A stretch of 32,000 nucleotides of DNA, from NCBI GenBank assembly GCA_003516025.1, contig CP023991.1:420001-452000 (forward strand). Direction: 5' to 3'. Source of the stretch: Candidatus Saccharimonadota bacterium. Lineage in GTDB: Bacteria; Patescibacteriota; Saccharimonadia; Saccharimonadales; UBA4665. This document shows positions 13,970-27,178 of the stretch, in pieces (position 1 is the stretch's first letter; each line of letters starts with the position of its first letter). The notes below the pieces were generated by a model that had not been told where the DNA came from, did not search any database, and was given only the letters and a program-made list of their open reading frames with translations. Made by a program: the position numbers and the translations under genes.

Positions 13970-14030
13970 ACAAAAATTATAACAATAAAACGAGCCACTG
14001 ATGTGACCCTGGGGGTGATTAGTTTTTTCT

Positions 14031-14060
14031 GGCTGGTTATAGTTGACGTGCTTCTCGACA
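14031..14060 (-). repeat. copy 4 (diverged) of the roughly 30-nt intergenic repeat family
   Basis: GGCTGGTTATAGTTGACGTGCTTCTCGACA matches the identical copies at 22 of 30 positions without gaps. It begins 18 nt after the PNPOx-like stop. Confidence 0.5.
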
Positions 14061-14543: not shown

Positions 14544-14560
14544 GCGTTAACTATATCAAA

Positions 14561-14589
14561 TAAAAAGATCTCTAACGTGAAGAGATCTT
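14561..14589 (-). terminator. intrinsic terminator after lepB
   Basis: The minus strand reads AAGATCTCT-tcacgtt-AGAGATCTT followed by TTTTTATTT. Confidence 0.65.
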
Positions 14590-14604
14590 ATATTACTTAT
14601 GCTT

Positions 14605-14634
14605 GGCTGTCCATCGTTGACGTACTTCGCAACT
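14605..14634 (-). repeat. copy 1 of the 30-nt repeat (GGCTGTCCATCGTTGACGTACTTCGCAACT on the plus strand)
   Basis: Identical at 30 of 30 positions to 15240-15269. It lies in the 3' UTR position of lepB, upstream of the terminator. Confidence 0.8.
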
Positions 14635-14666: not shown

Positions 14667-15179
14667 CTAAGGCTCAACCTTGCCGACAATACTTTCTGCC
14701 GTAATAGGTCCAAATACTCGAGAATCCAATGAAACGCTTCTGTTGTCTCCGAGGACGAAATATTGGTTCGCAGGAATAGTAATATCAATTTTTCCGCTAG
14801 TGTCGATTTGTTGTTTTAGGTAAAGTGCATCAGGATTAAAGTCTCGCGAAAACTGACTATTGTATATAGTAACTTTCCCGTTAGATATGGTAACTCTTTC
14901 ATTGGGTAGCCCTACAACGCGTTTTATGAGTTGTTTGGTTTGGTTTTGTCCTTTTTCTGAAAAGACAACTATATCTCCTCGAGCAGGATTGGCCCCACCT
15001 TTATAGGGTTCTGCTTTTACTGTTTGTCCAGAATTAAGTGTCGGACTCATTGCGGGTCCGTCTACTGCATATAGGCTTCTGTGATAATGCACCAGAGCTA
15101 CCAATGCAATGGCGACCGCTACTAATAGGATGGCTATAATTATGAGAATAACTGTTATCTTTTTTACATTTCTTTTCAT
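14667..15179 (-). CDS. lepB: signal peptidase I
   Basis: 170 aa with an N-terminal TM anchor, the Ser box GPAMSPTL, RGDIVVF, the Lys box KRVVGLPNE and VLGDNRSVSLDSR. TGcTATAAT lies 6 nt from the ATG. Confidence 0.9.
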   Translation of the reverse strand: MKRNVKKITVILIIIAILLVAVAIALVALVHYHRSLYAVDGPAMSPTLNSGQTVKAEPYKGGANPARGDIVVFSEKGQNQTKQLIKRVVGLPNERVTISNGKVTIYNSQFSRDFNPDALYLKQQIDTSGKIDITIPANQYFVLGDNRSVSLDSRVFGPITAESIVGKVEP

Positions 15180-15196
15180 AACGGGATTATAGCATA

Positions 15197-15222
15197 TAAA
15201 AAGACCTCAAAATCTGAGGCCT
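15197..15222 (-). terminator. intrinsic terminator-like hairpin upstream of the lepB promoter
   Basis: The minus strand reads AGGCCTCA-gattt-TGAGGTCT followed by TTTT. Confidence 0.6.
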
Positions 15223-15239
15223 ATAAGCATAAGCTTTAT

Positions 15240-15269
15240 GGCTGTCCATCGTTGACGTACTTCGCAACT
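15240..15269 (-). repeat. copy 2 of the 30-nt repeat
   Basis: Identical to 14605-14634. It abuts the left edge of the AT-rich island. Confidence 0.8.
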
Positions 15270-16447: not shown

Positions 16448-17323
16448 TTACTTTGCTTTACCAATTTTGTTCATTAGTAGCTCATTCTTTTTACGCGATA
16501 TCCAGTAAACGAAATCAAAAATCAAAGGGGCTGTGATACGGTGACTATATATTGCATCTTGCAGTGCGCGTATGTCGGCCATATCAACTTGTTGTGTTTC
16601 GCTTGCGGCAAGAAGGGATTTTGATCTATTCAAATTAGCTTCTGCATTTTTTATTGCTTGGAAATTCTTATAACATTCAACAATCATGGTTTGAAATGCG
16701 GGAATCATCGGAACTATGATAACCAAAATGAATTCTTTTAGTTTTAAATCTCGCATATTTCCGACGTAAATTAAAACAAAGAATATTACAATTACTAAAG
16801 CTGTTGTTGTGATTGTGTATTTCGTTCTAAGACTGCCATCCCACCACGAATTTATTCTTTGAGCCGTAATGATTGCTTTGCTTTGTTCCCATCGAGGGCT
16901 AATCGTATACCAGTTTTTTAATCGAGGATCTTTATTTTTCTTCAGGAAAGTTTTTTTATTGAGTAATTTGTCTGCCCACTCTTCGATCACTTCTTTAATG
17001 TCAGGTTTATTAACGATGATTACATTCAAGGGTATCTCTAGAACGTGATGATCGAATAACTCCTGAATAGAGGCAGCAGTTTTTATATAGTTTTTTATAA
17101 TCAAATACAGTGCGGCATTAATGGCAATTACAGCGATACCCAAGATAGCTATGTGTGATGCAAACTGTGGTTTGAATATCGTAGCAAAACTAAAGACAGG
17201 GACTACAATAATATTAAGCAGAAGGGTTAATGCCCAGTATTTTTTTGCATGTGAGTAAATCGCTCTTTGGGCGGCAAGAAGTCGGATTGCTTTCTTCTCA
17301 TTCTGTTTTTTGATGCTGTTCAT
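16448..17323 (-). CDS. four-TM effector, S-4TM-like (SMODS-associated) CBASS effector candidate
   Basis: 291 aa with two TM hairpins (YWALTLLLNIIVVPVFSFATIF and IAILGIAVIAINAALYLII, then ALVIVIFFVLIYVG and FILVIIVPMIPAFQTMIV) separated by a soluble insert. It lies 1 nt downstream of the nucleotidyltransferase gene. Confidence 0.7.
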   Translation of the reverse strand: MNSIKKQNEKKAIRLLAAQRAIYSHAKKYWALTLLLNIIVVPVFSFATIFKPQFASHIAILGIAVIAINAALYLIIKNYIKTAASIQELFDHHVLEIPLNVIIVNKPDIKEVIEEWADKLLNKKTFLKKNKDPRLKNWYTISPRWEQSKAIITAQRINSWWDGSLRTKYTITTTALVIVIFFVLIYVGNMRDLKLKEFILVIIVPMIPAFQTMIVECYKNFQAIKNAEANLNRSKSLLAASETQQVDMADIRALQDAIYSHRITAPLIFDFVYWISRKKNELLMNKIGKAK

Positions 17324-17324
17324 A

Positions 17325-18233
17325 TCAATAGTTGTAATTAGGAAATTTATTATTAAACAGTAAATTTAACCAGTAGAACGCATCCTTAAAGTTACCACCT
17401 ATTGTAGCATTCATCGCTTTTTCACTTCTCACCATTGCCGTATGTATCTTGCTAAGTGCCGCTGTTTTCTTATATTCAGAATTGCATGCTGCGATATAGC
17501 CAACTATTCCTGTGGGATCTTGTAACTGCGCAAGATTTATAGAGTATAGATCTTTGAAATAATAATGTAGATGTACGACATAGCTTGCGACAGTGCCTTT
17601 TTTGAAATACGTCTCCGCATATTTAGCGGCTCTCATTTCTAAATAGAATGACGATATATCTACGACATTATAGTATTTCCATGCTTTGATGAATCTTATG
17701 AATGTTTTTACCTCGTAATTGTATGTGGTGTTAACCTCTGTTACGTAAGCATTATGAGCTTTTGGGGCTGTCTTAATCCATCCTCCGTTACCATCGGCGA
17801 TTCCATAGACGGGTATGCCGCTCTTCGTAAATTCTATTAAGTAACCGGGAACTACCTCGTTAGTCTCGACGCCGTATAAGCCAAATGGCACAACAACAGC
17901 AGGCGTACTAACGTGGACATTTGATTTAGGAAAGGTGTAATTCAGCTGATCTCTGACTTTAGTAAGCATTGTGGTTGAATTTGAAGTAAGCTGTTTTTCG
18001 GGTATCAATGCCATGTAATCAATATCACTGTAGTAGATGATGTCTGTTGAGTTGCCAGACGAGCCGCTCTGAAAAAAATAGTTAATTGTATAAATTTTTT
18101 CAAGGCTTGCAAGAACACTAGCTCTATGACCCTTGGCAGCATCCCTGGCTGTACTATTGGGTTTCAACGAGGTATGAAATTGGTCAAAAGCTACTTGTAG
18201 AGTACGTGGCATGTCCTTAACCCTTTTAACCAT
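17325..18233 (-). CDS. SMODS/CD-NTase-like nucleotidyltransferase (CBASS cyclase candidate)
   Basis: 302 aa with the pol-beta NTase signature G57-S58, 11 residues, then D70-I-D72 (QSGSSGNSTDIIYYSDIDYM). A candidate third acidic residue sits in the NEVVPG strand (E126). The alternative start is ATG 18212, because the ATG at 18233 overlaps a TGcTACAAT box. Confidence 0.8.
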   Translation of the reverse strand: MVKRVKDMPRTLQVAFDQFHTSLKPNSTARDAAKGHRASVLASLEKIYTINYFFQSGSSGNSTDIIYYSDIDYMALIPEKQLTSNSTTMLTKVRDQLNYTFPKSNVHVSTPAVVVPFGLYGVETNEVVPGYLIEFTKSGIPVYGIADGNGGWIKTAPKAHNAYVTEVNTTYNYEVKTFIRFIKAWKYYNVVDISSFYLEMRAAKYAETYFKKGTVASYVVHLHYYFKDLYSINLAQLQDPTGIVGYIAACNSEYKKTAALSKIHTAMVRSEKAMNATIGGNFKDAFYWLNLLFNNKFPNYNY

Positions 18234-18614
18234 TGTAGCACTAATGCTTAATAAAATAGCAATACTGACAAACTAAGTATTTGTCTTATGTTAATTTCTG
18301 CATTATAGTGTCTGGTAGCCTTCGAGATAATTCCATGACAATCCTGCAAGAGAAAGCTAAAGCGGCACAATTCCGCAAAAACCTCGCAGATCGCTGCGTT
18401 GTAATGAACAAGCCAGTCTGACGCGTATCCCGAAGATACAAACATAAGTAGATATGCCGTACGCAAGTCGAGGCCCTACTTAGTCAGATAGAACCTTTGA
18501 TTGCGAAACAGGTACTGCCACTCGCGACAAAGCTCAATCACCGTTTTTAGGTGTGCTCTATAAAGAGCGAGTTTTGTTGTGTCCTAGTACCGCAATATAA
18601 GAATCGATATTTAT

Positions 18615-18640
18615 AACCACCCAGAAATGGGTGGTTTTTT
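18615..18640 (+). terminator. strong intrinsic terminator with no annotated upstream plus-strand gene
   Basis: AACCACCCA-gaaa-TGGGTGGTT followed by TTTT. Confidence 0.6.
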
Positions 18641-18667
18641 AATACATAAAAATAGGAGGGATTTTAT

Positions 18668-18808
18668 ATGACGAAAAATCCAAAGCAGTTAGAACTTAAG
18701 TTCAACGTGAAGACCCGCAGCGATGGTGCTAGGAGCCGTGCGCCGCACCGGCGGGGCGGGCGTCCTGTATTACTTGATATACAGGACATAAATAGGGTCA
18801 TTTCATGA
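18668..18808 (+). CDS. small basic ORF (46 aa) coupled to rep by an ATGA overlap
   Basis: AGGAGGG SD lies 7 nt upstream. The product is MTKNPKQLELKFNVKTRSDGARSRAPHRRGGRPVLLDIQDINRVIS. The ORF is below the track size cut-off, and coding status is uncertain because the region also carries the origin-like hairpin. Confidence 0.4.
   Translation: MTKNPKQLELKFNVKTRSDGARSRAPHRRGGRPVLLDIQDINRVIS
18762..18787 (+). promoter_or_regulatory. candidate rolling-circle double-strand origin: 9-bp stem presenting TACTTGAT in the loop (CTTG/ATA nick-site consensus)
   Basis: GTCCTGTAT-tacttgat-ATACAGGAC. ACTTGATAT matches the nick region I recall for phiX174 and the CTTGATA core of pC194-class origins. It lies 18 nt upstream of the rep ATG. 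Confidence 0.6.
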
Positions 18809-19674
18809 ATAATGATCTCAACAAAATCGAGTCAATATTTGGAAAAATTAAAAAAATAGATGCCAGCTACGAGGTACGTGCCAGTGCGAAGTACTACCCT
18901 CATCATACAAAAGTATTTATTCCGAATGTTCCATACAGAAAAATGATTCCGTTCATGGAGCAACGCATTGATGATCTTGACGACATTGTAGAGGACTGGG
19001 ATACGAGGGTTATTGCTGATTCAAAAACATCAACTGAGGACAATTTGGAGCGGTCAATCCGCAGAACGAAAACACTTATTTCCGATTACGTTCTTTGTAA
19101 CGATTTTGATATATTCGCTACCTTTACCTTTTCCCCTAAGAAAACAGCCGATCGTACTGACACCCGTACCGTTAAACGCCAAATGAGTAACTGGATAAAA
19201 AACCAAAAAGCACGTAACAGCAATTTTGCATATTTGATTGTTCCAGAATTCCATAAAGACGGTAAGTCTTTGCATTTTCATGCACTTATCCATGACTATC
19301 CAGGCGAGCTCATCGATTCAGGCAATCGAATAAATGGCAGAAAATCGTACAACTTTAAAAGTTATACCCTCGGTATCAATAGCGCGGTAAAGATAGACGA
19401 CCGCCATAAAGTATCGAACTATGTTAAGAAATACATAACAAAAGACATGCCCCAGTTTCCCGGCAAGCACCGCTTTTGGTCTTCCACTGGCTTAGAGCGG
19501 CCACGGGTAGAGGATAACCCAAGTGAGTGGTACCTACAAGCAAAGCCACAGCGGGTATATGAAAATGAGTACGGGTGTACGCTCTACTTCATTACCGACT
19601 CGTCGCAAGCCACTGAGTCTCATAGTCTCACTGAAGGCAGCACTCCGCCATCGCTCTCGGAGAAAGACGCCTAG
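18805..19674 (+). CDS. HUH rolling-circle replication initiator (two-tyrosine, phiX174 gpA / Microviridae-like motif 3)
   Basis: 289 aa with motif 1 FATFTFSP, motif 2 SLHFHALIH (H157-F-H159) and motif 3 NYVKKYITK (Y206 and Y210). Confidence 0.85.
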   Translation: MNNDLNKIESIFGKIKKIDASYEVRASAKYYPHHTKVFIPNVPYRKMIPFMEQRIDDLDDIVEDWDTRVIADSKTSTEDNLERSIRRTKTLISDYVLCNDFDIFATFTFSPKKTADRTDTRTVKRQMSNWIKNQKARNSNFAYLIVPEFHKDGKSLHFHALIHDYPGELIDSGNRINGRKSYNFKSYTLGINSAVKIDDRHKVSNYVKKYITKDMPQFPGKHRFWSSTGLERPRVEDNPSEWYLQAKPQRVYENEYGCTLYFITDSSQATESHSLTEGSTPPSLSEKDA

Positions 19675-19771: not shown

Positions 19772-19811
19772 GCTATAATGTATATAAATTAAATCGGCGG
19801 TAACGGTGGGA

Positions 19812-21335
19812 ATGCATGCTTTTCTCATCGCTCGCGTATCGACTGCTGATCAGGTGGAAGCCTTGCCGGCTCAAGTCTATAAATTAACCGACTATGCTAA
19901 AAGTCAGGGTTACGATTTTGAGTTGTTCGAGTTTCATGAAAGCGCTTACAAAGGCACTCGAGAAAAGTTCCGCGAAGTCATAGCTACCATACAGGCGTCG
20001 ACCGAAAAAGTAGTCGTTGTCTTTGATAAAGTCGACCGTTTCACTCGTGATTCAAGCGCAGAAGAAACAAATATTTTCAAAAAGCTGTATCAGTCAGGAA
20101 AGATCGAGCTACATTTTCCATCTGAAAACCTGATACTACACGAAGGTTCACCGTCTACCGACAGAATGCGCCTCGGACTGAATACGATATTTGCAGAGTA
20201 TTACTCCGACGCTATAAGTGATAATGTAAAGCGCCGCAACTATCAGCTATGGAGAGACGGCTATTGGACCGGACCCGCACCGTTCGGATATGTAAATATA
20301 TCAAAACCAGATGGCAGTAAATGGATAGATAAAGTACCCGTTGAAGCATTAGCAGTGAAATTAGCCTATGAGTTATATGCCACTGGAAGCTACTCGCTCC
20401 GGCTTGTTCGCATGCAAGTTATAAAGCAATACGGTATTTCTCGTTCAATTGGCCAATGGGATAAGGTGCTCAAGAATCCGTTCTATGCAGGACAAATGAG
20501 AATCAAAGGCAAGCTGTACAAACACAACTATGAACAGCTCATTAACTCGTCATTATTCGATCAAGTTAAAGCCGTGCGGGAAGGTCATGCGATACAACCA
20601 AAAAGGTGGGCTGGCTTGCCGTATCCATATCGTGGACTTATTACGTGTGCTGACTGCGGTTGTAAGGTGACTTTCGAGATAAAGAAAGGCAAGTATGTAT
20701 ATGGTCACTGTACGCAGTTCAGAGGTAAGCACGATGCAGCGTATGTTAATGAAAAGTTAATGACAAAACAGCTTAGATCAGTATTCTGGCAGATACAAAT
20801 ACCGGAAGATGCTTATGAAGAAGTATCAAAAGCATTACTGGCTGATGATGAACAATCAAACCGACAAAACAGTGAAAAGCTAGAGCATATTAACGCCGAA
20901 ATCAAACGCTATGAATCGAAAATTGAACGTAATTACGATATGTATTTAGACGGCGGCATAAGCAAAGAAACCTATCAAAAGAAGCATGACGAATTGACAT
21001 TAATTAAGGCCTCACTCGAAAGCACTAGAAAAAATATCGAACTTATGGCGAACAATAATTATGACGGTGCATTACATCTGTTAGAGCTATCTCGTAAAGC
21101 GCCTGATTTATTTGAGACTGCTGAAATTGAAGAACGCCGTACGCTCATCAATATGGTACTTTCGAACTTGGAGCTAGACGACAAAGAACTTTGGTGGAAA
21201 CTAAAAGAACCATACGATTGTATGGTTCTTTGTAATGAAAACGCAAATTGGCTGGGGATGAGGGATTCGAACCCCCGAATGCTGGTACCAGAAACCAGTG
21301 CCTTACCACTTGGCGAATCCCCAATATATATGTAA
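19812..21335 (+). CDS. large serine recombinase (integrase)
   Basis: N-terminal resolvase domain with the catalytic-Ser context AFLIARVSTADQ, a recombinase domain, a zinc ribbon (CADCGCKVTFEIKKGKYVYGHC) and a C-terminal coiled coil. The last 28 codons read antisense through tRNA-Gln and beyond. The track start is GTG 19806. Confidence 0.9.
   Translation: MHAFLIARVSTADQVEALPAQVYKLTDYAKSQGYDFELFEFHESAYKGTREKFREVIATIQASTEKVVVVFDKVDRFTRDSSAEETNIFKKLYQSGKIELHFPSENLILHEGSPSTDRMRLGLNTIFAEYYSDAISDNVKRRNYQLWRDGYWTGPAPFGYVNISKPDGSKWIDKVPVEALAVKLAYELYATGSYSLRLVRMQVIKQYGISRSIGQWDKVLKNPFYAGQMRIKGKLYKHNYEQLINSSLFDQVKAVREGHAIQPKRWAGLPYPYRGLITCADCGCKVTFEIKKGKYVYGHCTQFRGKHDAAYVNEKLMTKQLRSVFWQIQIPEDAYEEVSKALLADDEQSNRQNSEKLEHINAEIKRYESKIERNYDMYLDGGISKETYQKKHDELTLIKASLESTRKNIELMANNNYDGALHLLELSRKAPDLFETAEIEERRTLINMVLSNLELDDKELWWKLKEPYDCMVLCNENANWLGMRDSNPRMLVPETSALPLGESPIYM
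21249..21323 (-). tRNA. tRNA-Gln (anticodon CUG), CCA encoded
   Basis: The reverse complement folds as a cloverleaf. Acceptor stem UGGGGAU/AUCCCCA, anticodon arm CUGGU-UUCUGGU-ACCAG, T arm GGGGG-UUCGAAU-CCCUC, discriminator G plus CCA. Length 75 nt. Confidence 0.95.
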
Positions 21336-21417: not shown

Positions 21418-21588
21418 AAGAATATACAGAGTGCGGCAAGAGAACTAGCTCTACGACCCGCCAGCAACCTGCCAGTGTGCCTATCGGTATGCAAGCAAGG
21501 TGCTCCATCTAGCCCAGGCTTCAGCGCTGGAAAGATATTTATTTGTCACGATATCCTTTCAGCGCTTTTGCCAAGAAAGGATATTTTT
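21418..21588 (+). promoter_or_regulatory. SAM-I-clan riboswitch candidate with terminator / SD-sequestering expression platform upstream of metK
   Basis: P1 GAATAT (21420-21425) pairs with ATATTT (21535-21540). J1/2 AGAG at 21428-21431, GCAACC at 21464-21469, GGTGC at 21499-21503, and a GAAAGATAT 3' strand. A P2 loop CTAG could pair with CTAG at 21509-21512. Downstream hairpin GATATCCTTTC (21550-21560) / GAAAGGATAT (21575-21584) is followed by TTTT and ATG, and its right arm contains the SD. Confidence 0.65.
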
Positions 21589-22903: not shown

Positions 22904-24442
22904 CTAGACAGTGTCCAGGGTGTTCTTTCGTGTGGTCTCCAACCGCACCTCGCTCTCTTTGAGGATGTCGTGGCCGTGCTCGGTCTTGTGCCAGGTGTAG
23001 CGGGTCTTGCGACGAGCGAGCTCGAAGAGGACCCGGTACGCCGACCAGCTGGTGAAGATCCACCAGAAGGGTGCGAGCAGCATGTACTTGACGCTGCCGT
23101 AGCCCTCACGGTCGAGACATGCCGTAACCAGCTGCAGGAAGAGCAGCAGGTTGCCGACCAGGAGCAGTGCCACGCCAGTGTAGAACACCGGAGTGGGGAA
23201 CAACTGCTCGATGGCCTGCGAACCATCGGTGTAGCCCGCGACGCGAGTCACGAAGTACGCGATGGTCAGACCCCAGTAGATCGGGTTGAGCATCAGGCTG
23301 AAGGGCGTACCCAGCATCAGCAGGTTGAAGCAGAACCACTTGACGGGTCCCATCTGCCGAGCCGTACGTACCGGCTGCCTGGTGTAGACCAGACCGGTCT
23401 GCAGGTAGCCCTTCAGCCAGCGGCGTCGCTGCCCATCGGCCACGCGGACACGGGAAGTTGCCTCCTCGTAGGTCACCGAGTCGATGATCTTGATGTCGTA
23501 GCCGTACATGGCGAGGGCGCCAGCCAGCTCCGCATCCTCGGTGACGTTGTACGAGTCCCATCCGTAGGCGGCATCGGTGCCACCGGGGAGTGCCGGGAAC
23601 TCGCTCTGCGGGAAGGCGATCTTGCGGAGCACCTCCGTGCGGAAGTGGTTCGAAGTTCCTCCCAGCGGCGGTACCAGGTTGAGCTTGGCCAGCCCCGCCA
23701 GGTTGTACACGAAGTGCACCACGTACTCCGCCCAGTAGAACCGGGTGACCCACGAGGTGTCTTCGTTCCAGAACTGCAGCCGGGCCTGCACGCAGGCGAC
23801 GGTGCCTTTCTGGTCCTTGCGGAACTCGGCCACTGCCTTGAGCAGCTGGTCCGGGTCCGGACGGTCCTCGGCGTCGTAGATGACACTGAAGACGCCGGTG
23901 GCACGGGCCAGGCCGATGTTGAGCGCGCGCGGCTTGCCCTTGGGCTGGTTCATGCGCGCCTGGCCCTGGGGGATGCCCGGTGCGACGATGATCTCGAAGT
24001 TGTCCGGCAGGTCCATGATCTGGGCCTCCAGGAGGGTCTCGGTGTCATCTTCCTCGAGCAGCAACAGCACCTGCAGCCTGTGCTTGGGGTACTGGAGCTG
24101 GCTGAGGTTGTACACCAGCGCCGGCAGGATCTGGGCCTCCCTGTAGAGGGGAACCAGGGCGGTGTAGGTCGGCAGATCCGGGTCGTTGATGCTCAGCGGC
24201 GGCGTTGCCGGTGAAGATCCGCGGACCTGGAGTGATGCCACGAACAGCACGGCCTTCAGCAGCATGATGCAGCCGTAGAAGGTCAAGCTGATGTCGACGA
24301 GCACTTGCAGCGTGCCGGTGGTGAAGAGCACCAGGCCGACCAGGACTGCGAACAGGCCCAGTGCGAGGGTGATCTTCTGGCCGGTGCTCAGGAACACCCG
24401 GGCTGAACGCCGCGGCAGTGCCTTGTTGCGATGACCGCTCAC
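22904..24442 (-). CDS. membrane-embedded processive family-2 glycosyltransferase (cellulose/chitin/hyaluronan-synthase-like)
   Basis: Motifs VIYDAEDRPDPDQL, VTEDAELA and QRRRWLKG (the D, D, D, QxxRW signature), flanked by TM helices. The start is reassigned to GTG 24442, which forms a GTGA overlap with the upstream stop and has GAGGAG SD upstream. Confidence 0.85.
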   Translation of the reverse strand: MSGHRNKALPRRSARVFLSTGQKITLALGLFAVLVGLVLFTTGTLQVLVDISLTFYGCIMLLKAVLFVASLQVRGSSPATPPLSINDPDLPTYTALVPLYREAQILPALVYNLSQLQYPKHRLQVLLLLEEDDTETLLEAQIMDLPDNFEIIVAPGIPQGQARMNQPKGKPRALNIGLARATGVFSVIYDAEDRPDPDQLLKAVAEFRKDQKGTVACVQARLQFWNEDTSWVTRFYWAEYVVHFVYNLAGLAKLNLVPPLGGTSNHFRTEVLRKIAFPQSEFPALPGGTDAAYGWDSYNVTEDAELAGALAMYGYDIKIIDSVTYEEATSRVRVADGQRRRWLKGYLQTGLVYTRQPVRTARQMGPVKWFCFNLLMLGTPFSLMLNPIYWGLTIAYFVTRVAGYTDGSQAIEQLFPTPVFYTGVALLLVGNLLLFLQLVTACLDREGYGSVKYMLLAPFWWIFTSWSAYRVLFELARRKTRYTWHKTEHGHDILKESEVRLETTRKNTLDTV

Positions 24443-26013
24443 GGCTTCTCCTCGAAGACGTAGTAGGAATTGTTCTGGAAGGCCAGCGTGTAGCCGTCCA
24501 GTTCCGGCGAACCGTCGAGGGTGGTGTAGACCTCGTCCGGCTGGTCGGTGTGGCGCATGACGATCCACTGGATGTCACTGCCTGCGGGGTGGGCCAGGGC
24601 CGGCTCCCAGAGCTGGTAGCTGCCCTCGTAGAGGTTGGCCCCTGTCGGGATGCCGGCCTCGAAGAGGACGAGCTCGTTGCCGAACGACTCCATGAGCACC
24701 AGGCCGCCCTCGTAGTGTTCCTTGAGGTAGGCGCTGGCCTCGGAAGAGTCCGTGCTGTAGCTGGTGTCGAGTGCCACCACCGGCTCCTTGAGTGTCACGA
24801 CGTTGCTGGTGTCCGTTGCCGTCCACAAGCCGAACATCACGACGAAGCCGATGATGACCACGCTGGCCATCTGCGTGTAGATCCTGCTGGTGAGCAGGCT
24901 CGACAGGTAGCCGATCAGCACTGCTGCTGGCAGAACCATCAGCAGACCGAAGCGCACGTTGTACAAGTCACCGGAGATCTGCTCGACGTGCAGCGGCCGC
25001 TGGCCACTGTAGAGGGCGAACACGAAGAACGGGAACAGCGTCAGGAGCGACAGAACCGGCAGCGAGTGCGCGGACAGCCGTTCACGAACGATGTACCCGA
25101 TCAGACCGATGACGGCCAGCACTGCGATCGGCAACCAGAGGTTGCTGACCGTCGCGATGGTGTAGGTGCGCAGCGCGACTAGCGGGTGTCCCAGCGAGGG
25201 TTCACCGCTGCCGACCCAGAGGGACGGCTTGGCGTACTCGCCGACCTGGAAGCTGAGCGGGTTCCCGAAGATGATCAGGTTCCACAGCATCCAGCCGGAG
25301 ATGGCGATTCCGCCGATGATCGCGAAGGCGATGACGGTGCCCTCGATCTTGCGACCTTCGAACTTGGAGCGCCATCCCATGATCCCGATCAGAACCGTCA
25401 GTACTGCGAACAGCACCCACGCTTCGTAGCGGGTCAGGCATCCTGCCAGTCCTGCCAGCCCGGCACCGATGAGGTAGCCGAACCGGTCAGTCTTGATCCA
25501 GCGCTGTGCACCGTAGACCATCCCCGCCATGCAGGCGAAGAGCAGGAGCTCGGTCATCGGCGTGGACTGCATGTACAGCACGTTGGGGTTCAGCATGAAC
25601 ACCAACGCACCGACGATGCCGGCCAGCTTGTGACCCGTGAGGTCGACGACGATCTTGTACAGCAGCGCGCTGGTGATGACGTAGGCCACCATCGACACGA
25701 TGCTGCCAGCGAAGCCGTTGAAGTACAGCGGGTCGATCCAGACGAACGGCAGGGACAGCAGGTGGGGCAGCGGAAGCCACACTCCACCGAGCTGCGCGAA
25801 CGACATGCCGCCGGACGGGTTGTTCAGTGTCCGGCTGGCGATCTCGAGGTGCGAGATGCCGTCCTTGTACGCCAAGATCACGCCCTTCTGGAAGAAGTAC
25901 GTGAACGAGGCGACCGACAGCAGGCTGGCTACGAGCGCCACCCAGCGGACGGTCTTGTCACGCTGCGGTGGACTGATGACCATGGGGTCACGGTCGAGTG
26001 TTGCGGTAGCCAT
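24439..26013 (-). CDS. polytopic membrane protein, putative GT-C-fold (ArnT/PMT-like) glycosyltransferase
   Basis: 524 aa with about 11-13 TM helices, a first loop carrying YKDGISHLEIA, and a C-terminal soluble domain. Its position after a polyprenyl-phosphate GT2 fits a three-component Gtr-type system. The family assignment is an inference. Confidence 0.7.
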   Translation of the reverse strand: MATATLDRDPMVISPPQRDKTVRWVALVASLLSVASFTYFFQKGVILAYKDGISHLEIASRTLNNPSGGMSFAQLGGVWLPLPHLLSLPFVWIDPLYFNGFAGSIVSMVAYVITSALLYKIVVDLTGHKLAGIVGALVFMLNPNVLYMQSTPMTELLLFACMAGMVYGAQRWIKTDRFGYLIGAGLAGLAGCLTRYEAWVLFAVLTVLIGIMGWRSKFEGRKIEGTVIAFAIIGGIAISGWMLWNLIIFGNPLSFQVGEYAKPSLWVGSGEPSLGHPLVALRTYTIATVSNLWLPIAVLAVIGLIGYIVRERLSAHSLPVLSLLTLFPFFVFALYSGQRPLHVEQISGDLYNVRFGLLMVLPAAVLIGYLSSLLTSRIYTQMASVVIIGFVVMFGLWTATDTSNVVTLKEPVVALDTSYSTDSSEASAYLKEHYEGGLVLMESFGNELVLFEAGIPTGANLYEGSYQLWEPALAHPAGSDIQWIVMRHTDQPDEVYTTLDGSPELDGYTLAFQNNSYYVFEEKP

Positions 26014-26780
26014 CAGGCTGCCATCTCCTTGGAGTCGTGGTGCTTGAGCGCACGCTTGAACTTGCGGTTGATGCGGTTCAGCTCCCTGATGGAACTGAAG
26101 GCCACATGGATCTTGGCGCCCGACTGCTTGCCGTAACGGCGCGGGCCGTGCGTAACGCCGACGTTCACCACCCGAAGCTGGTGTTCCTTGACGTACCGCA
26201 TGATCTCCGGAGAGATCGCCGCGCCCTGCATGGCGGTCAGCTGGTCGGCGAAGAGCTTGAGGCCCTCGCGCTTGAACAGCTTGAAGCCGCAGTCGACGTT
26301 GAACGCCTCGTGCTTGACGATCGCCCGCGAGAGCAACTGCCAGGCATGGCCGATGAGCTTCCTCGTCCAGTTGTCGGCACGTTTGATCCTGAAGCCGATG
26401 GCGACATCCGCGTTGGCGGAGAGCGCTTCGTTCAGGAGCTTGCTGACTTCCTGGGGAGCGAACTGCCCGTCGGCATCGCAGAACCCGATCCAGTCGTAAC
26501 CCATGGCCAAGCCGGTCTTGAGGCCGGTCTGGAGGGCTCCGCCGTATCCGAGGTTCCGGATGTGGGTCTCGGTCCGCACCTTGTCACCGTAGAGGCTTTC
26601 GAGGCGCTTGCAGACCGTGGACGTGTCGTCCTTGCTGCCGTCGTTGACGATGATGACGACGAACTCGTGCCCCTGCTTGTCCAGGTGGTCGACGGCTTCG
26701 CCTACCACGAAGGGCAAGTTCTCCGCCTCGTTCCAGGCCGGCAGGAAGAACGCGATGCTGGGCTTTGCTGAAGTGTCCAT
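26013..26780 (-). CDS. family-2 glycosyltransferase, polyprenyl-phosphate sugar synthase type (GtrB/Ppm1/DPM1-like)
   Basis: 255 aa from ATG 26780 with IAFFLPAWNEAENL, VNDGSKDDT, NLGYGGAL and CDADGQF. The TAATG overlap with gtrA and the TGATG overlap with the next gene indicate coupling. The track's extension to 26963 is rejected. Confidence 0.85.
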   Translation of the reverse strand: MDTSAKPSIAFFLPAWNEAENLPFVVGEAVDHLDKQGHEFVVIIVNDGSKDDTSTVCKRLESLYGDKVRTETHIRNLGYGGALQTGLKTGLAMGYDWIGFCDADGQFAPQEVSKLLNEALSANADVAIGFRIKRADNWTRKLIGHAWQLLSRAIVKHEAFNVDCGFKLFKREGLKLFADQLTAMQGAAISPEIMRYVKEHQLRVVNVGVTHGPRRYGKQSGAKIHVAFSSIRELNRINRKFKRALKHHDSKEMAA

Positions 26781-27178
26781 TAGACACCCCTTTCTGGTTG
26801 GAAGACCACGTGGTGGTTGATCAGGAAGGTGCAGACAGTGCTGAGCAGCGTCGCGAAAATTGCCGCGACTAGACTTGGGAGAGCACAGACGTTGTGCGCC
26901 AAGCCAAACAGTAGGCTGTTGATGCCGAGCGCCAGTGTGGCGTTGAAGGCAAACTTGAGCCATGTCAGCAACAGATACCCACCAGTACGCCGCGCAGAGT
27001 CACCCCAGGTAAAGGTGTAACTGAGCACGAAGTTCAACTGAGCGGATATCATGAAACCAATGCCGTTCGCATAGAGCGCGGGCATGTAGTGTTCCAGCAG
27101 GTGCAGTAGTAATAACTGGACGAGGAAACACAGCAACCCAACTCCAACGAACTTTATCTGTCGGCTCATGTATTCCAA
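26780..27178 (-). CDS. GtrA-family small membrane protein (polyprenyl-phosphate sugar flippase-like)
   Basis: About 130 aa with four TM helices and FVGVGLLCFLVQLLLLHLL at the N-terminus. 27178 is a TTG, so ATG 27169 is the likelier start. Confidence 0.75.
   Translation of the reverse strand: MEYMSRQIKFVGVGLLCFLVQLLLLHLLEHYMPALYANGIGFMISAQLNFVLSYTFTWGDSARRTGGYLLLTWLKFAFNATLALGINSLLFGLAHNVCALPSLVAAIFATLLSTVCTFLINHHVVFQPERGV

Follow-up and report, generated by a model that had tools for sequence, protein, structure and literature searches.

A candidate rolling-circle origin in a covarying hairpin upstream of rep in an integrated Saccharibacteria element

A small integrated element in the genome of a Candidatus Saccharimonadota bacterium (assembly GCA_003516025.1, contig CP023991.1, positions 420,001 to 452,000; these 32,000 nt are the window, numbered here from its first letter) encodes a 289-residue HUH rolling-circle initiator, Rep (18805-19674, + strand). 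A perfect hairpin at 18762-18787 of the same strand ends 18 nt before rep starts. A first-pass annotation, made from the letters alone, had proposed this hairpin as the rolling-circle nick site of the adjacent Rep, and comparison with related loci supports the proposal: the hairpin and its CTTGA core are kept in relatives. We consider the hairpin to be very probably the nick locus of Rep's double-strand origin (dso), with a probability of about 0.85. The mechanism is textbook rolling-circle replication and the origin is of a well-known kind. What appears to be new, from the sequence comparisons, is a nick core like those of phiX174 and pC194 in a hairpin loop for a family of two-tyrosine HUH Reps without a mapped origin that we could find.

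A covarying hairpin with a nick-like loop

The hairpin is built from a 5' arm, GTCCTGTAT (18762-18770), an 8-nt loop, TACTTGAT (18771-18778), and a 3' arm, ATACAGGAC (18779-18787), forming the perfect 9-bp stem and nick-like loop that the first-pass annotation had described. The CTTGATA nick core, recognized by loop invariance and by comparison with phiX174 and pC194, occupies 18773-18779 on the + (rep-coding) strand, within the 9-mer ACTTGATAT at 18772-18780. Folded as single-stranded DNA, 18700-18810 reaches -24.3 kcal/mol (z = -3.7; 0/200 shuffles equally stable), and the minimum free energy (MFE) structure holds two adjacent hairpins, the 9-bp hairpin and a GC-rich one at 18714-18760. Perfect hairpins with stems of at least 9 bp occur nine times in the whole window, compared to about 1.35 in first-order Markov sequences modelled on it. 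The case against chance rests on comparison: the same hairpin and motif stand in the same place in dozens of related loci.

Fifty-eight related loci include DNA upstream of rep, and about 57 of them carry a CT(T/C)G(A/T) core just upstream of the gene on the rep strand. Among the first 15 related loci, CTTGATA itself lies just upstream of rep in nine, and four more have the loop variants CTTGATT, CTTGACA and CTTGAGA in a hairpin; the stem sequences vary, yet complementarity is always kept. A simple scan for perfect stems of at least 8 bp with CT(T/C)G in the loop recovered a hairpin at the rep-upstream position in 46 loci, with stems of 8-15 bp, and about a dozen matches away from that position in approximately 0.5 Mb. 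Eleven of the 12 loci missed by the scan have (T)ACTTGA(T/C/G)A or CTTGTTA followed by the 3' arm (A)TAGGTACAC or a close variant, and several of the missed loci contain an extra GC mini-hairpin inside the loop or a decayed 5' arm. In nearly all motif-bearing loci the motif lies within 0-100 nt of the rep start, on the rep strand. Additionally, a covariance model (R1) built from five hairpins and run over both strands of 446 kb matched only the rep-upstream site and its reverse complement.

Because loop length and core position vary among loci, plain MAFFT put the 5' arm out of register, and a covariance-model alignment was used instead. In this alignment 93% of cells pair, compared to 79.5% after shuffling, and 54 cells carry changes on both sides, compared to 16.1; none of 500 shuffles was as high by either measure. 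Seven of the 10 stem pairs have changed on both sides, and sliding the pairing partner, as a control, makes the pairing collapse. Counting + strand rows only, pairing is canonical in 216 of the 217 cells that make up the inner eight pairs. The C, T and G of CT(T/C)G are invariant across the aligned loops. The outer stem, (G)TGTCC/GGACA(C), is partly conserved, and the inner stem is free to vary (TGTAT, CATA, TATA, CGTA, TGTT, CTATTA and others). The stems contain almost no G-T pairs; perfect palindromes with few such pairs are what would be expected of a cruciform in duplex DNA.

These data bear directly on the idea that the palindrome arose by chance or is used by the neighbouring serine recombinase. 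In favour of such a reading, serine recombinases act on sites that are palindromes of an imperfect kind, and the 9-mer alone is not statistically rare. However, the covarying hairpin stands beside rep in elements that have no recombinase (inovirus-type contigs and plasmids), and in the window the recombinase gene is 1 kb away from it and the tRNA junction 2.5 kb away. We find this explanation scarcely credible, and the comparative data effectively refute it.

Integrated elements, genomes of inovirus type and 1.4-kb plasmids, three kinds of replicon, share the arrangement. Conservation of hairpin and CTTGA core in the nucleotide sequence extends down to a Rep identity of approximately 34%. In bajarodino virus 42, an Inoviridae record, the sequence upstream of rep is AAGTGAACCT-CTACTTGACTAA-AGGTTCACTT, and the 1.4-kb Staphylococcus/Macrococcus plasmids have AAGTTGGTCGT-CTACTTGACAT-ACGACCAACTT.

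Two variations on this layout were seen. In a group of inovirus-type loci (L024, L031, L038, L040, L041, L043/L044 and L049), a GC-rich mini-hairpin sits in the loop just 5' of CTTG, as in GTGTACCTTA-[GGACGGCC GTCA GGCCGTCC]-CCCTACTTGACA-TAAGGTACAC upstream of rep; the insertion gives a branched origin structure. In the 1.4-kb plasmids, the CTACTTGACAT hairpin falls within the 5' part of the annotated rep coding sequence (L054, which is pAVY, NC_013451, at 363-395; L055 at 143-175). Either these plasmids have an intragenic origin like that of phiX174, or the annotated rep start is too far upstream.

Rep and the known initiators

Rep matches Pfam family PF23343 (REP_ORF2-G2P) at 48.9 bits, above the cutoff of 27.8, and PHROG families described as 'rolling circle DNA replication initiation'. 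Its homologues come from genomes of Saccharibacteria and other Patescibacteria, and its three motifs were examined in an alignment of 22 homologues with 42-66% identity. Motif 1 is FATFTF (residues 104-109), in which F104, T106 and T108 are invariant (FxTFTF). Motif 2, the HUH metal-binding motif, is the invariant H157-F158-H159, and motif 3 is Y206-VKK-Y210-ITK, with Y206, K209, Y210 and K213 invariant. The AlphaFold2 model (pLDDT 80) indicates that Rep folds as an HUH nuclease domain. Its best matches in the Protein Data Bank (PDB) are wheat dwarf virus Rep (6q1m/6we0, probability 0.99), the Helitron transposase 7lcc and the Reps of adeno-associated virus and tomato yellow leaf curl virus, at weak E-values of about 6e-3. 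A sequence search of the PDB with Rep gave no meaningful match.

Two homologues have unusual architectures. P0023 has an N-terminal extension, in frame with Rep, that reads ...PVLLDIQD... through the hairpin, and P0031 (496 aa) is a single product with both a Rep and a serine-recombinase domain. They may be real variants or fusions made in gene calling.

The closest functional parallel is phiX174. Its record reads CCCCCAACTTGATATTAATAAC with the rep_origin annotated at A4306, which places the nick between G4305 and A4306 (CAACTTG|ATAT, cut G|A). Nine consecutive nucleotides, ACTTGATAT, are identical to the window, so the match noted in the first-pass annotation is borne out by the record. The annotation had also likened motif 3 to that of the phiX174 initiator gpA, and the comparison holds: Y343-VAK-Y347-VNK of gpA has the same juxtaposed two-tyrosine motif as Y206-VKK-Y210-ITK of Rep. 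Over motifs 1 and 2, hhalign aligned the two proteins across 57 columns with a probability of 73% (FDIFATFTF...IVPEFHKDGKSLHFHAL in Rep, FIVFDTLTL...CVPEYGTANGRLHFHAV in gpA). The VPE(F/Y)...LHFHA block falls in register, with H157-F158-H159 corresponding to gpA LHFHAV. The nicked strand in phiX174 is the rep-coding strand, as predicted for the window element. However, gpA belongs to PF05840 rather than PF23343, and the window Rep is about half its size. The phiX174 origin also lies inside gene A, whereas the window site is upstream of rep in the loop of a perfect 9-bp stem; to our knowledge, no hairpin requirement has been described for the phiX174 origin. In gpA, two tyrosines carry out initiation and termination (PMC5714925). 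By analogy with phiX174, Rep would cleave the + strand at G18776|A18777, and the rep-coding strand would be the one displaced.

The pC194 dso (Rep_1, PF01446) resembles the window in a different way. As the first-pass annotation had stated for the pC194 class, its origin sequences contain the CTTG/ATA core: TTCTTATCTTGATAATAAGGG, or CTTAT-CTTGATA-ATAAG (PMC7072734). The core is thus set between short inverted repeats, as in the window, and in both cases the origin lies next to rep in a small replicon. In contrast, the window stem is longer and covaries, there is no Pfam match between the two Rep proteins, and the translation of pC194 RepA lacks the YxxKYxxK pair of the window Rep. RepA uses one tyrosine and one glutamate.

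Filamentous phages offer a third comparison. In Ff phages (f1/M13) the nick lies in a hairpin preceded by further hairpins, as in the window and its relatives. The hairpins just upstream of the Ff plus-strand nick serve as the minus-strand (lagging-strand) origin and the packaging signal. Inovirus-type genomes also encode relatives of the window Rep, directly after a Zot/pI-like morphogenesis ATPase. However, Ff gpII belongs to another protein family and uses another nick sequence. Unlike Ff, the window element has no Zot, coat or other virion genes, and it is not an inovirus prophage.

The Reps of pAvY-type plasmids and of the Dulem and bajarodino inoviruses share their Pfam family with the window Rep, and near the 5' end of rep their replicons have a hairpin whose loop contains CTACTTGAC. 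These Reps are only about 35-39% identical to that of the window and their core is CTTGACA rather than CTTGATA; in pAvY, unlike the window, the hairpin is inside the annotated rep coding sequence. We found no experimental description of these origins in the literature. Because pAvY-B1 and pAvY-B2 carry only a replication-protein gene (pAvY has one additional short ORF; PMC6491766), a replicon of the PF23343 family needs little beyond Rep and its cis sites.

Structures and a leader ORF around the nick site

The GC-rich hairpin at 18714-18760 (+ strand), seen in the MFE fold and in relatives, abuts the nick hairpin. Its core, 18725-18749, reads GGTGC-TA-GGAGC-CGT-GCGCC-GCACC, with one inner mismatch. 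The first-pass annotation had singled out the palindrome GTGCG-C-CGCAC, which is indeed present at 18738-18748, but the conserved unit is the larger, covarying bulged hairpin. A GC-rich hairpin appears a short way upstream of the nick hairpin in most of the related loci that were folded, of both integrated and inovirus type. In the locus L013 and the majority of integrated loci it consists of an outer stem, a 2-nt 5' bulge, an inner stem and a short loop. Compensatory changes are seen in the inner stem (AGCGC/GCGCT, GGCAA/TTGCC, AGCGA/TCGCT, ACAGC/GCTGT and GGCT/AGCC), and the outer stem varies as GGTGC/GCACC, GGCGC/GCGCC, GACGAGC/GCTCGTC and GCACGCTC/GAGCGTGC. Because this hairpin also occurs in inovirus-type loci, where it is intergenic, we assign it to the origin region rather than to the small open reading frame (ORF) that crosses it in the window. 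It is a candidate for the Rep-binding locus or for an element of the lagging-strand (minus-strand) origin. A conserved (A/G)GGGTCA downstream of the nick hairpin is another candidate for Rep binding.

Further upstream, a conserved structured non-coding region of approximately 330 nt (18287-18652, + strand) lies between the element's cargo genes and the small ORF. It starts with a promoter-like TTGTCT-17-TATAGT, whose -10 aligns with TATAAT-like sequence in relatives, and at its end a terminator-like hairpin (18615-18636) precedes a T-run. The hairpins that RNAalifold predicts in it show compensatory changes and, on the + strand, G-U pairs. Matches by nhmmer were restricted to integrated loci with Rep plus recombinase (the window, L066, L064, L016/L018 and L001, with weak matches in L030 and L060). 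It may serve as a single-strand origin or as a 5' leader or attenuator, or it may encode an RNA of its own. An ORF at 18281-18421 within it was rejected, as L066 has a stop in the aligned frame. Rfam has no match for this region or for either hairpin.

Both hairpins are traversed by a 46-codon leader ORF (MTKNPKQLELKF...; 18668-18808, + strand), whose Shine-Dalgarno (SD) sequence GGAGGG (18655-18660) ends 7 nt before its start and whose stop lies in an ATGA overlap with rep. The first-pass annotation had recognized this SD-led ORF and allowed that it might be spurious; its geometry stands, and spuriousness is unlikely. About 20 integrated relatives have a counterpart. The collection's gene caller also called it (L068). 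Most counterparts have an SD-like sequence upstream, many begin M-(S/T)-(K/Q/N), and they run for 31-50 codons from the likely start. Nearly all stop 4-11 nt into rep or a few nucleotides before it. Inovirus-type loci have no consistent SD-led ORF ending at rep, although in a few of them the site is spanned by an open frame of 40-95 codons.

The check proposed in the first-pass annotation, hairpin conservation against peptide conservation, comes out in favour of the hairpin. The hairpin is conserved and covaries. The reading frame across it differs among relatives, with ...PVLLDIQD... in the window and L066 and ...(Y/N)LI(Y/H)RT... in others, and the loop bases are unvarying at every codon position despite these differences. 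Because the frame switches, it is the DNA structure of the nick hairpin that is conserved, not the peptide. Similarly, the recurrent peptide VGAKRxALHPR is a translation of the bulged hairpin, and where that hairpin covaries the peptide is altered (ARQYLPH, ANSLLCA). Over the N-terminal 30 codons there is a mild third-codon-position excess (9 vs 5 and 6; 13 vs 8 and 8), too weak as proof of selection on the leader peptide. We conclude that the selected features are the nucleic-acid structures. In the integrated lineage, its geometry suggests that the ORF is most likely a translated leader coupling ribosomes to the rep start. Its product does not look like a functional arginine-rich protein; a small recombination-directionality or DNA-binding protein is a possible alternative.

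A leader position raises the question of whether the nick hairpin works chiefly in RNA, for instance as an attenuator, a translational operator or a target for Rep autorepression, rather than as a DNA nick site. It does lie in the rep 5' leader in most loci, or inside the 5' part of the annotated rep coding sequence in the 1.4-kb plasmids; in the integrated lineage a translated leader ORF runs through it and stops at the rep ATG. The same strand also has two terminator-like hairpins further upstream. However, no T-run follows the hairpin in the window sequence, and its stem stops 6-7 nt short of the rep SD, leaving the SD uncovered. What stays invariant is the loop, whose sequence agrees with the nick region of phiX174 and the core of the pC194 origin, and the perfect palindromic stems have hardly any G-T pairs. 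The hairpin form is also kept both within pAvY-type rep coding sequences and in inovirus intergenic regions. We regard a mainly RNA-level function as very improbable. A long-range pairing that hides the rep SD was present in the window's centroid fold; it was inconsistent in relatives and was dropped.

The integrated element and its replication

The element forms an island of about 6 kb, from approximately 15.3 kb to 21.25 kb of the window, with a GC content of 36-45% compared to about 50% in the flanks. It contains, in order, two unknown ORFs, a pair of genes of a cyclic oligonucleotide-based antiphage signaling system (CBASS), approximately 430 nt of non-coding DNA, the small ORF with rep, and a serine recombinase gene. 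The CBASS cargo (16448-18233, - strand) comprises a SMODS cyclase (17325-18233) and a four-transmembrane (4TM) effector (16448-17323), identified by Pfam (SMODS and S_4TM) and PADLOC (cyclase, 1.5e-100; 4TM effector, 3.7e-61). The large serine recombinase, or integrase (19806-21335, + strand), matches Pfam Resolvase, Recombinase and Zn_ribbon_recom and a PHROG integrase family.

A tRNA-Gln(CTG) gene (21249-21323, - strand), found by ARAGORN and Rfam, was probably the target of integration and marks where the element probably ends on the right. The recombinase ORF runs without a stop through the entire tRNA on the opposite strand, so that its last 28 or so codons are tRNA antisense; the same layout occurs in L008 and, as a fragment, in L005. 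Recombinases of relatives that are not at tRNA-Gln end at about 482-491 aa. This suggests that the attachment site is at the 3' end of the recombinase gene and that the recombinase C-terminus would change on excision. Rep and recombinase are syntenic in L002-L005, L008, L063 and L066, and 12 related loci are adjacent to a tRNA gene (Gln in seven, plus Pro, Glu and Trp, with Asn more distantly). Within the recombinase ORF, just past the 3' end of tRNA-Gln, 21204-21231 is a perfect 12-bp palindrome, AAAGAACCATAC-GATT-GTATGGTTCTTT, which L008 shares in full and L005 in part; it may act as the tRNA terminator or belong to the recombinase attachment site.

The left border is approximate, at about 15.3 kb. 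Near it, a 31-nt sequence occurs three times (14030-14060, 14604-14634 and 15239-15269; two are identical and the third is at 74%). Every copy closely precedes a minus-strand gene, and one of these genes encodes a signal peptidase (14667-15179). A second repeat accompanies it (14552-14575 and 15188-15211). The 31-nt repeat is probably a duplicated promoter or 5' untranslated region, and it marks the likely host side of the border. Beyond the right edge, an S-box (S-adenosylmethionine) riboswitch match at 21419-21541 (+ strand; 41 bits against an Rfam gathering threshold of 44.4, E = 8.6e-07) lies upstream of a metK ORF, and the true metK start is therefore downstream of that ORF's first ATG. 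A block at about 23000-27000 has 61-65% GC in a window otherwise at 45-55%, and long ORFs overlap on its two strands; it may be of foreign origin or just a gene cluster with a composition of its own.

Apart from the 1.4-kb plasmids, relatives fall into two groups. Inovirus-type relatives are contigs of 4.5-7.4 kb and some chromosomal loci; they encode membrane proteins and a Zot-family ATPase, whose gene immediately precedes the hairpin and rep. GenBank Inoviridae (Dulem virus 66, bajarodino virus 42) have the same Zot-rep order. Integrated-type relatives have Rep followed by a large serine recombinase, a tRNA neighbour, no Zot and variable, often defence-like cargo (AAA_15/AAA_21 ATPases, a reverse transcriptase with a trypsin-like domain (RVT_1 plus Trypsin), YafQ/RelB and others in L058-L066). 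The window element is of the integrated type, and a tblastn search of the window with proteins of the inovirus-type locus L014, the Zot-like ATPase among them, found nothing. Together with the sister elements that share its Rep and recombinase backbone, it appears to represent a Saccharibacteria family of small integrative elements that carry defence genes. Gram-positive integrative elements with a serine recombinase and a rolling-circle replication (RCR) initiator or relaxase have the same backbone of integrase and RCR nuclease with variable cargo, and they also insert next to or within tRNA genes. The window family differs in its host, Saccharibacteria, and in its Rep and origin, which are of inovirus/PF23343 type rather than Rep_trans or Rep_2.

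This kinship raises another possibility, that the hairpin is an origin of transfer at which Rep acts as a relaxase, the excised element being mobilised by the transfer apparatus of another element. The chemistry and site architecture would be the same, the element is integrative and has no transfer genes of its own, and pC194/pUB110-type RCR Reps can serve mobilisation by ICEBs1 (PMC5714925). On the other side, Rep and the hairpin are the sole replication function in the 1.4-kb plasmids and inovirus genomes, where the module can have no role but replication, and no conjugation apparatus or coupling protein was seen in the window. We judge transfer as the explanation of the site to be quite improbable, though the two roles are compatible with each other.

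Several observations weigh against the hairpin as the dso. The 9-mer ACTTGATAT occurs once in 32 kb against an expectation of 0.18, and at least one copy appeared in 17 of 100 shuffles, so by itself it is poor evidence. One locus of the 58, L035, has no recognisable motif. PF23343 is the only Rep family in Pfam that the protein matches; it has no match to Phage_GPA (PF05840) or Rep_1 (PF01446) at E <= 0.01, the distant hhalign match to gpA being its sole connection with them, and because it falls outside both families the cleavage position is drawn by analogy. Our literature search found no mapped or experimentally demonstrated nick site for any PF23343 Rep, and no paper with the phiX174 origin string, PF23343 or inovirus origins of this type. 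The hairpin is also part of the rep mRNA leader and may have an additional role at the RNA level. Finally, no repeat of tRNA-Gln was found at the left side of the island, where two-copy matches were short and probably due to chance, and the only other contig shown by a look-up with the flanking signal peptidase has the island as well, not an empty site.

With the hairpin as the dso, replication might proceed as follows. The serine recombinase would excise the element as a supercoiled circle or, less probably, the element would be acted on in place. The inverted repeat would extrude or melt and present TACTTGAT as single-stranded DNA. The two-tyrosine HUH Rep would then cut the + strand, most probably between G18776 and A18777, and link covalently to the 5' phosphate via Tyr206 or Tyr210, while a host helicase and polymerase extend the 3' OH around the circle. 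At the regenerated site the second tyrosine would cleave and the first would join, freeing a + strand circle as phiX174 gpA does. The displaced strand would become duplex from a structured element just upstream, the bulged GC hairpin and/or the 330-nt region. In the integrated lineage, translation of the leader ORF over the same DNA probably brings ribosomes to the rep start codon.

A broader proposal is that the origin is deliberately embedded in expressed sequence: the structured region of about 330 nt, with its promoter and its terminator-like end, would be followed by the translated leader ORF, which crosses both hairpins of the origin and stops within the start of rep. Transcription and translation across the origin would then gate both Rep synthesis and origin firing, within a previously undescribed family of Saccharibacteria integrative replicons in which an inovirus rep and origin were captured by a tRNA-targeting serine recombinase and ferry defence genes. 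Such an arrangement would, for example, couple replication to excision or to the state of the host. We offer this tentatively and consider it, taken as a whole, rather unlikely.

The hairpin provides a concrete predicted origin and nick site, G18776|A18777, for PF23343, a family common in inovirus-like phages and tiny plasmids. It also points to an apparent capture of an inovirus-type rep and origin module by small, tRNA-integrating Saccharibacteria elements with CBASS or other defence-like cargo. We know of no replicating plasmid vectors in use for the Saccharibacteria phylum. The rep-plus-origin cassette of approximately 1.3 kb and its cognate serine integrase with a tRNA target are just the parts that building a Saccharibacteria vector would require, and this pair of minimal replicon and integrase may contribute to genetic tools for the candidate phyla radiation.

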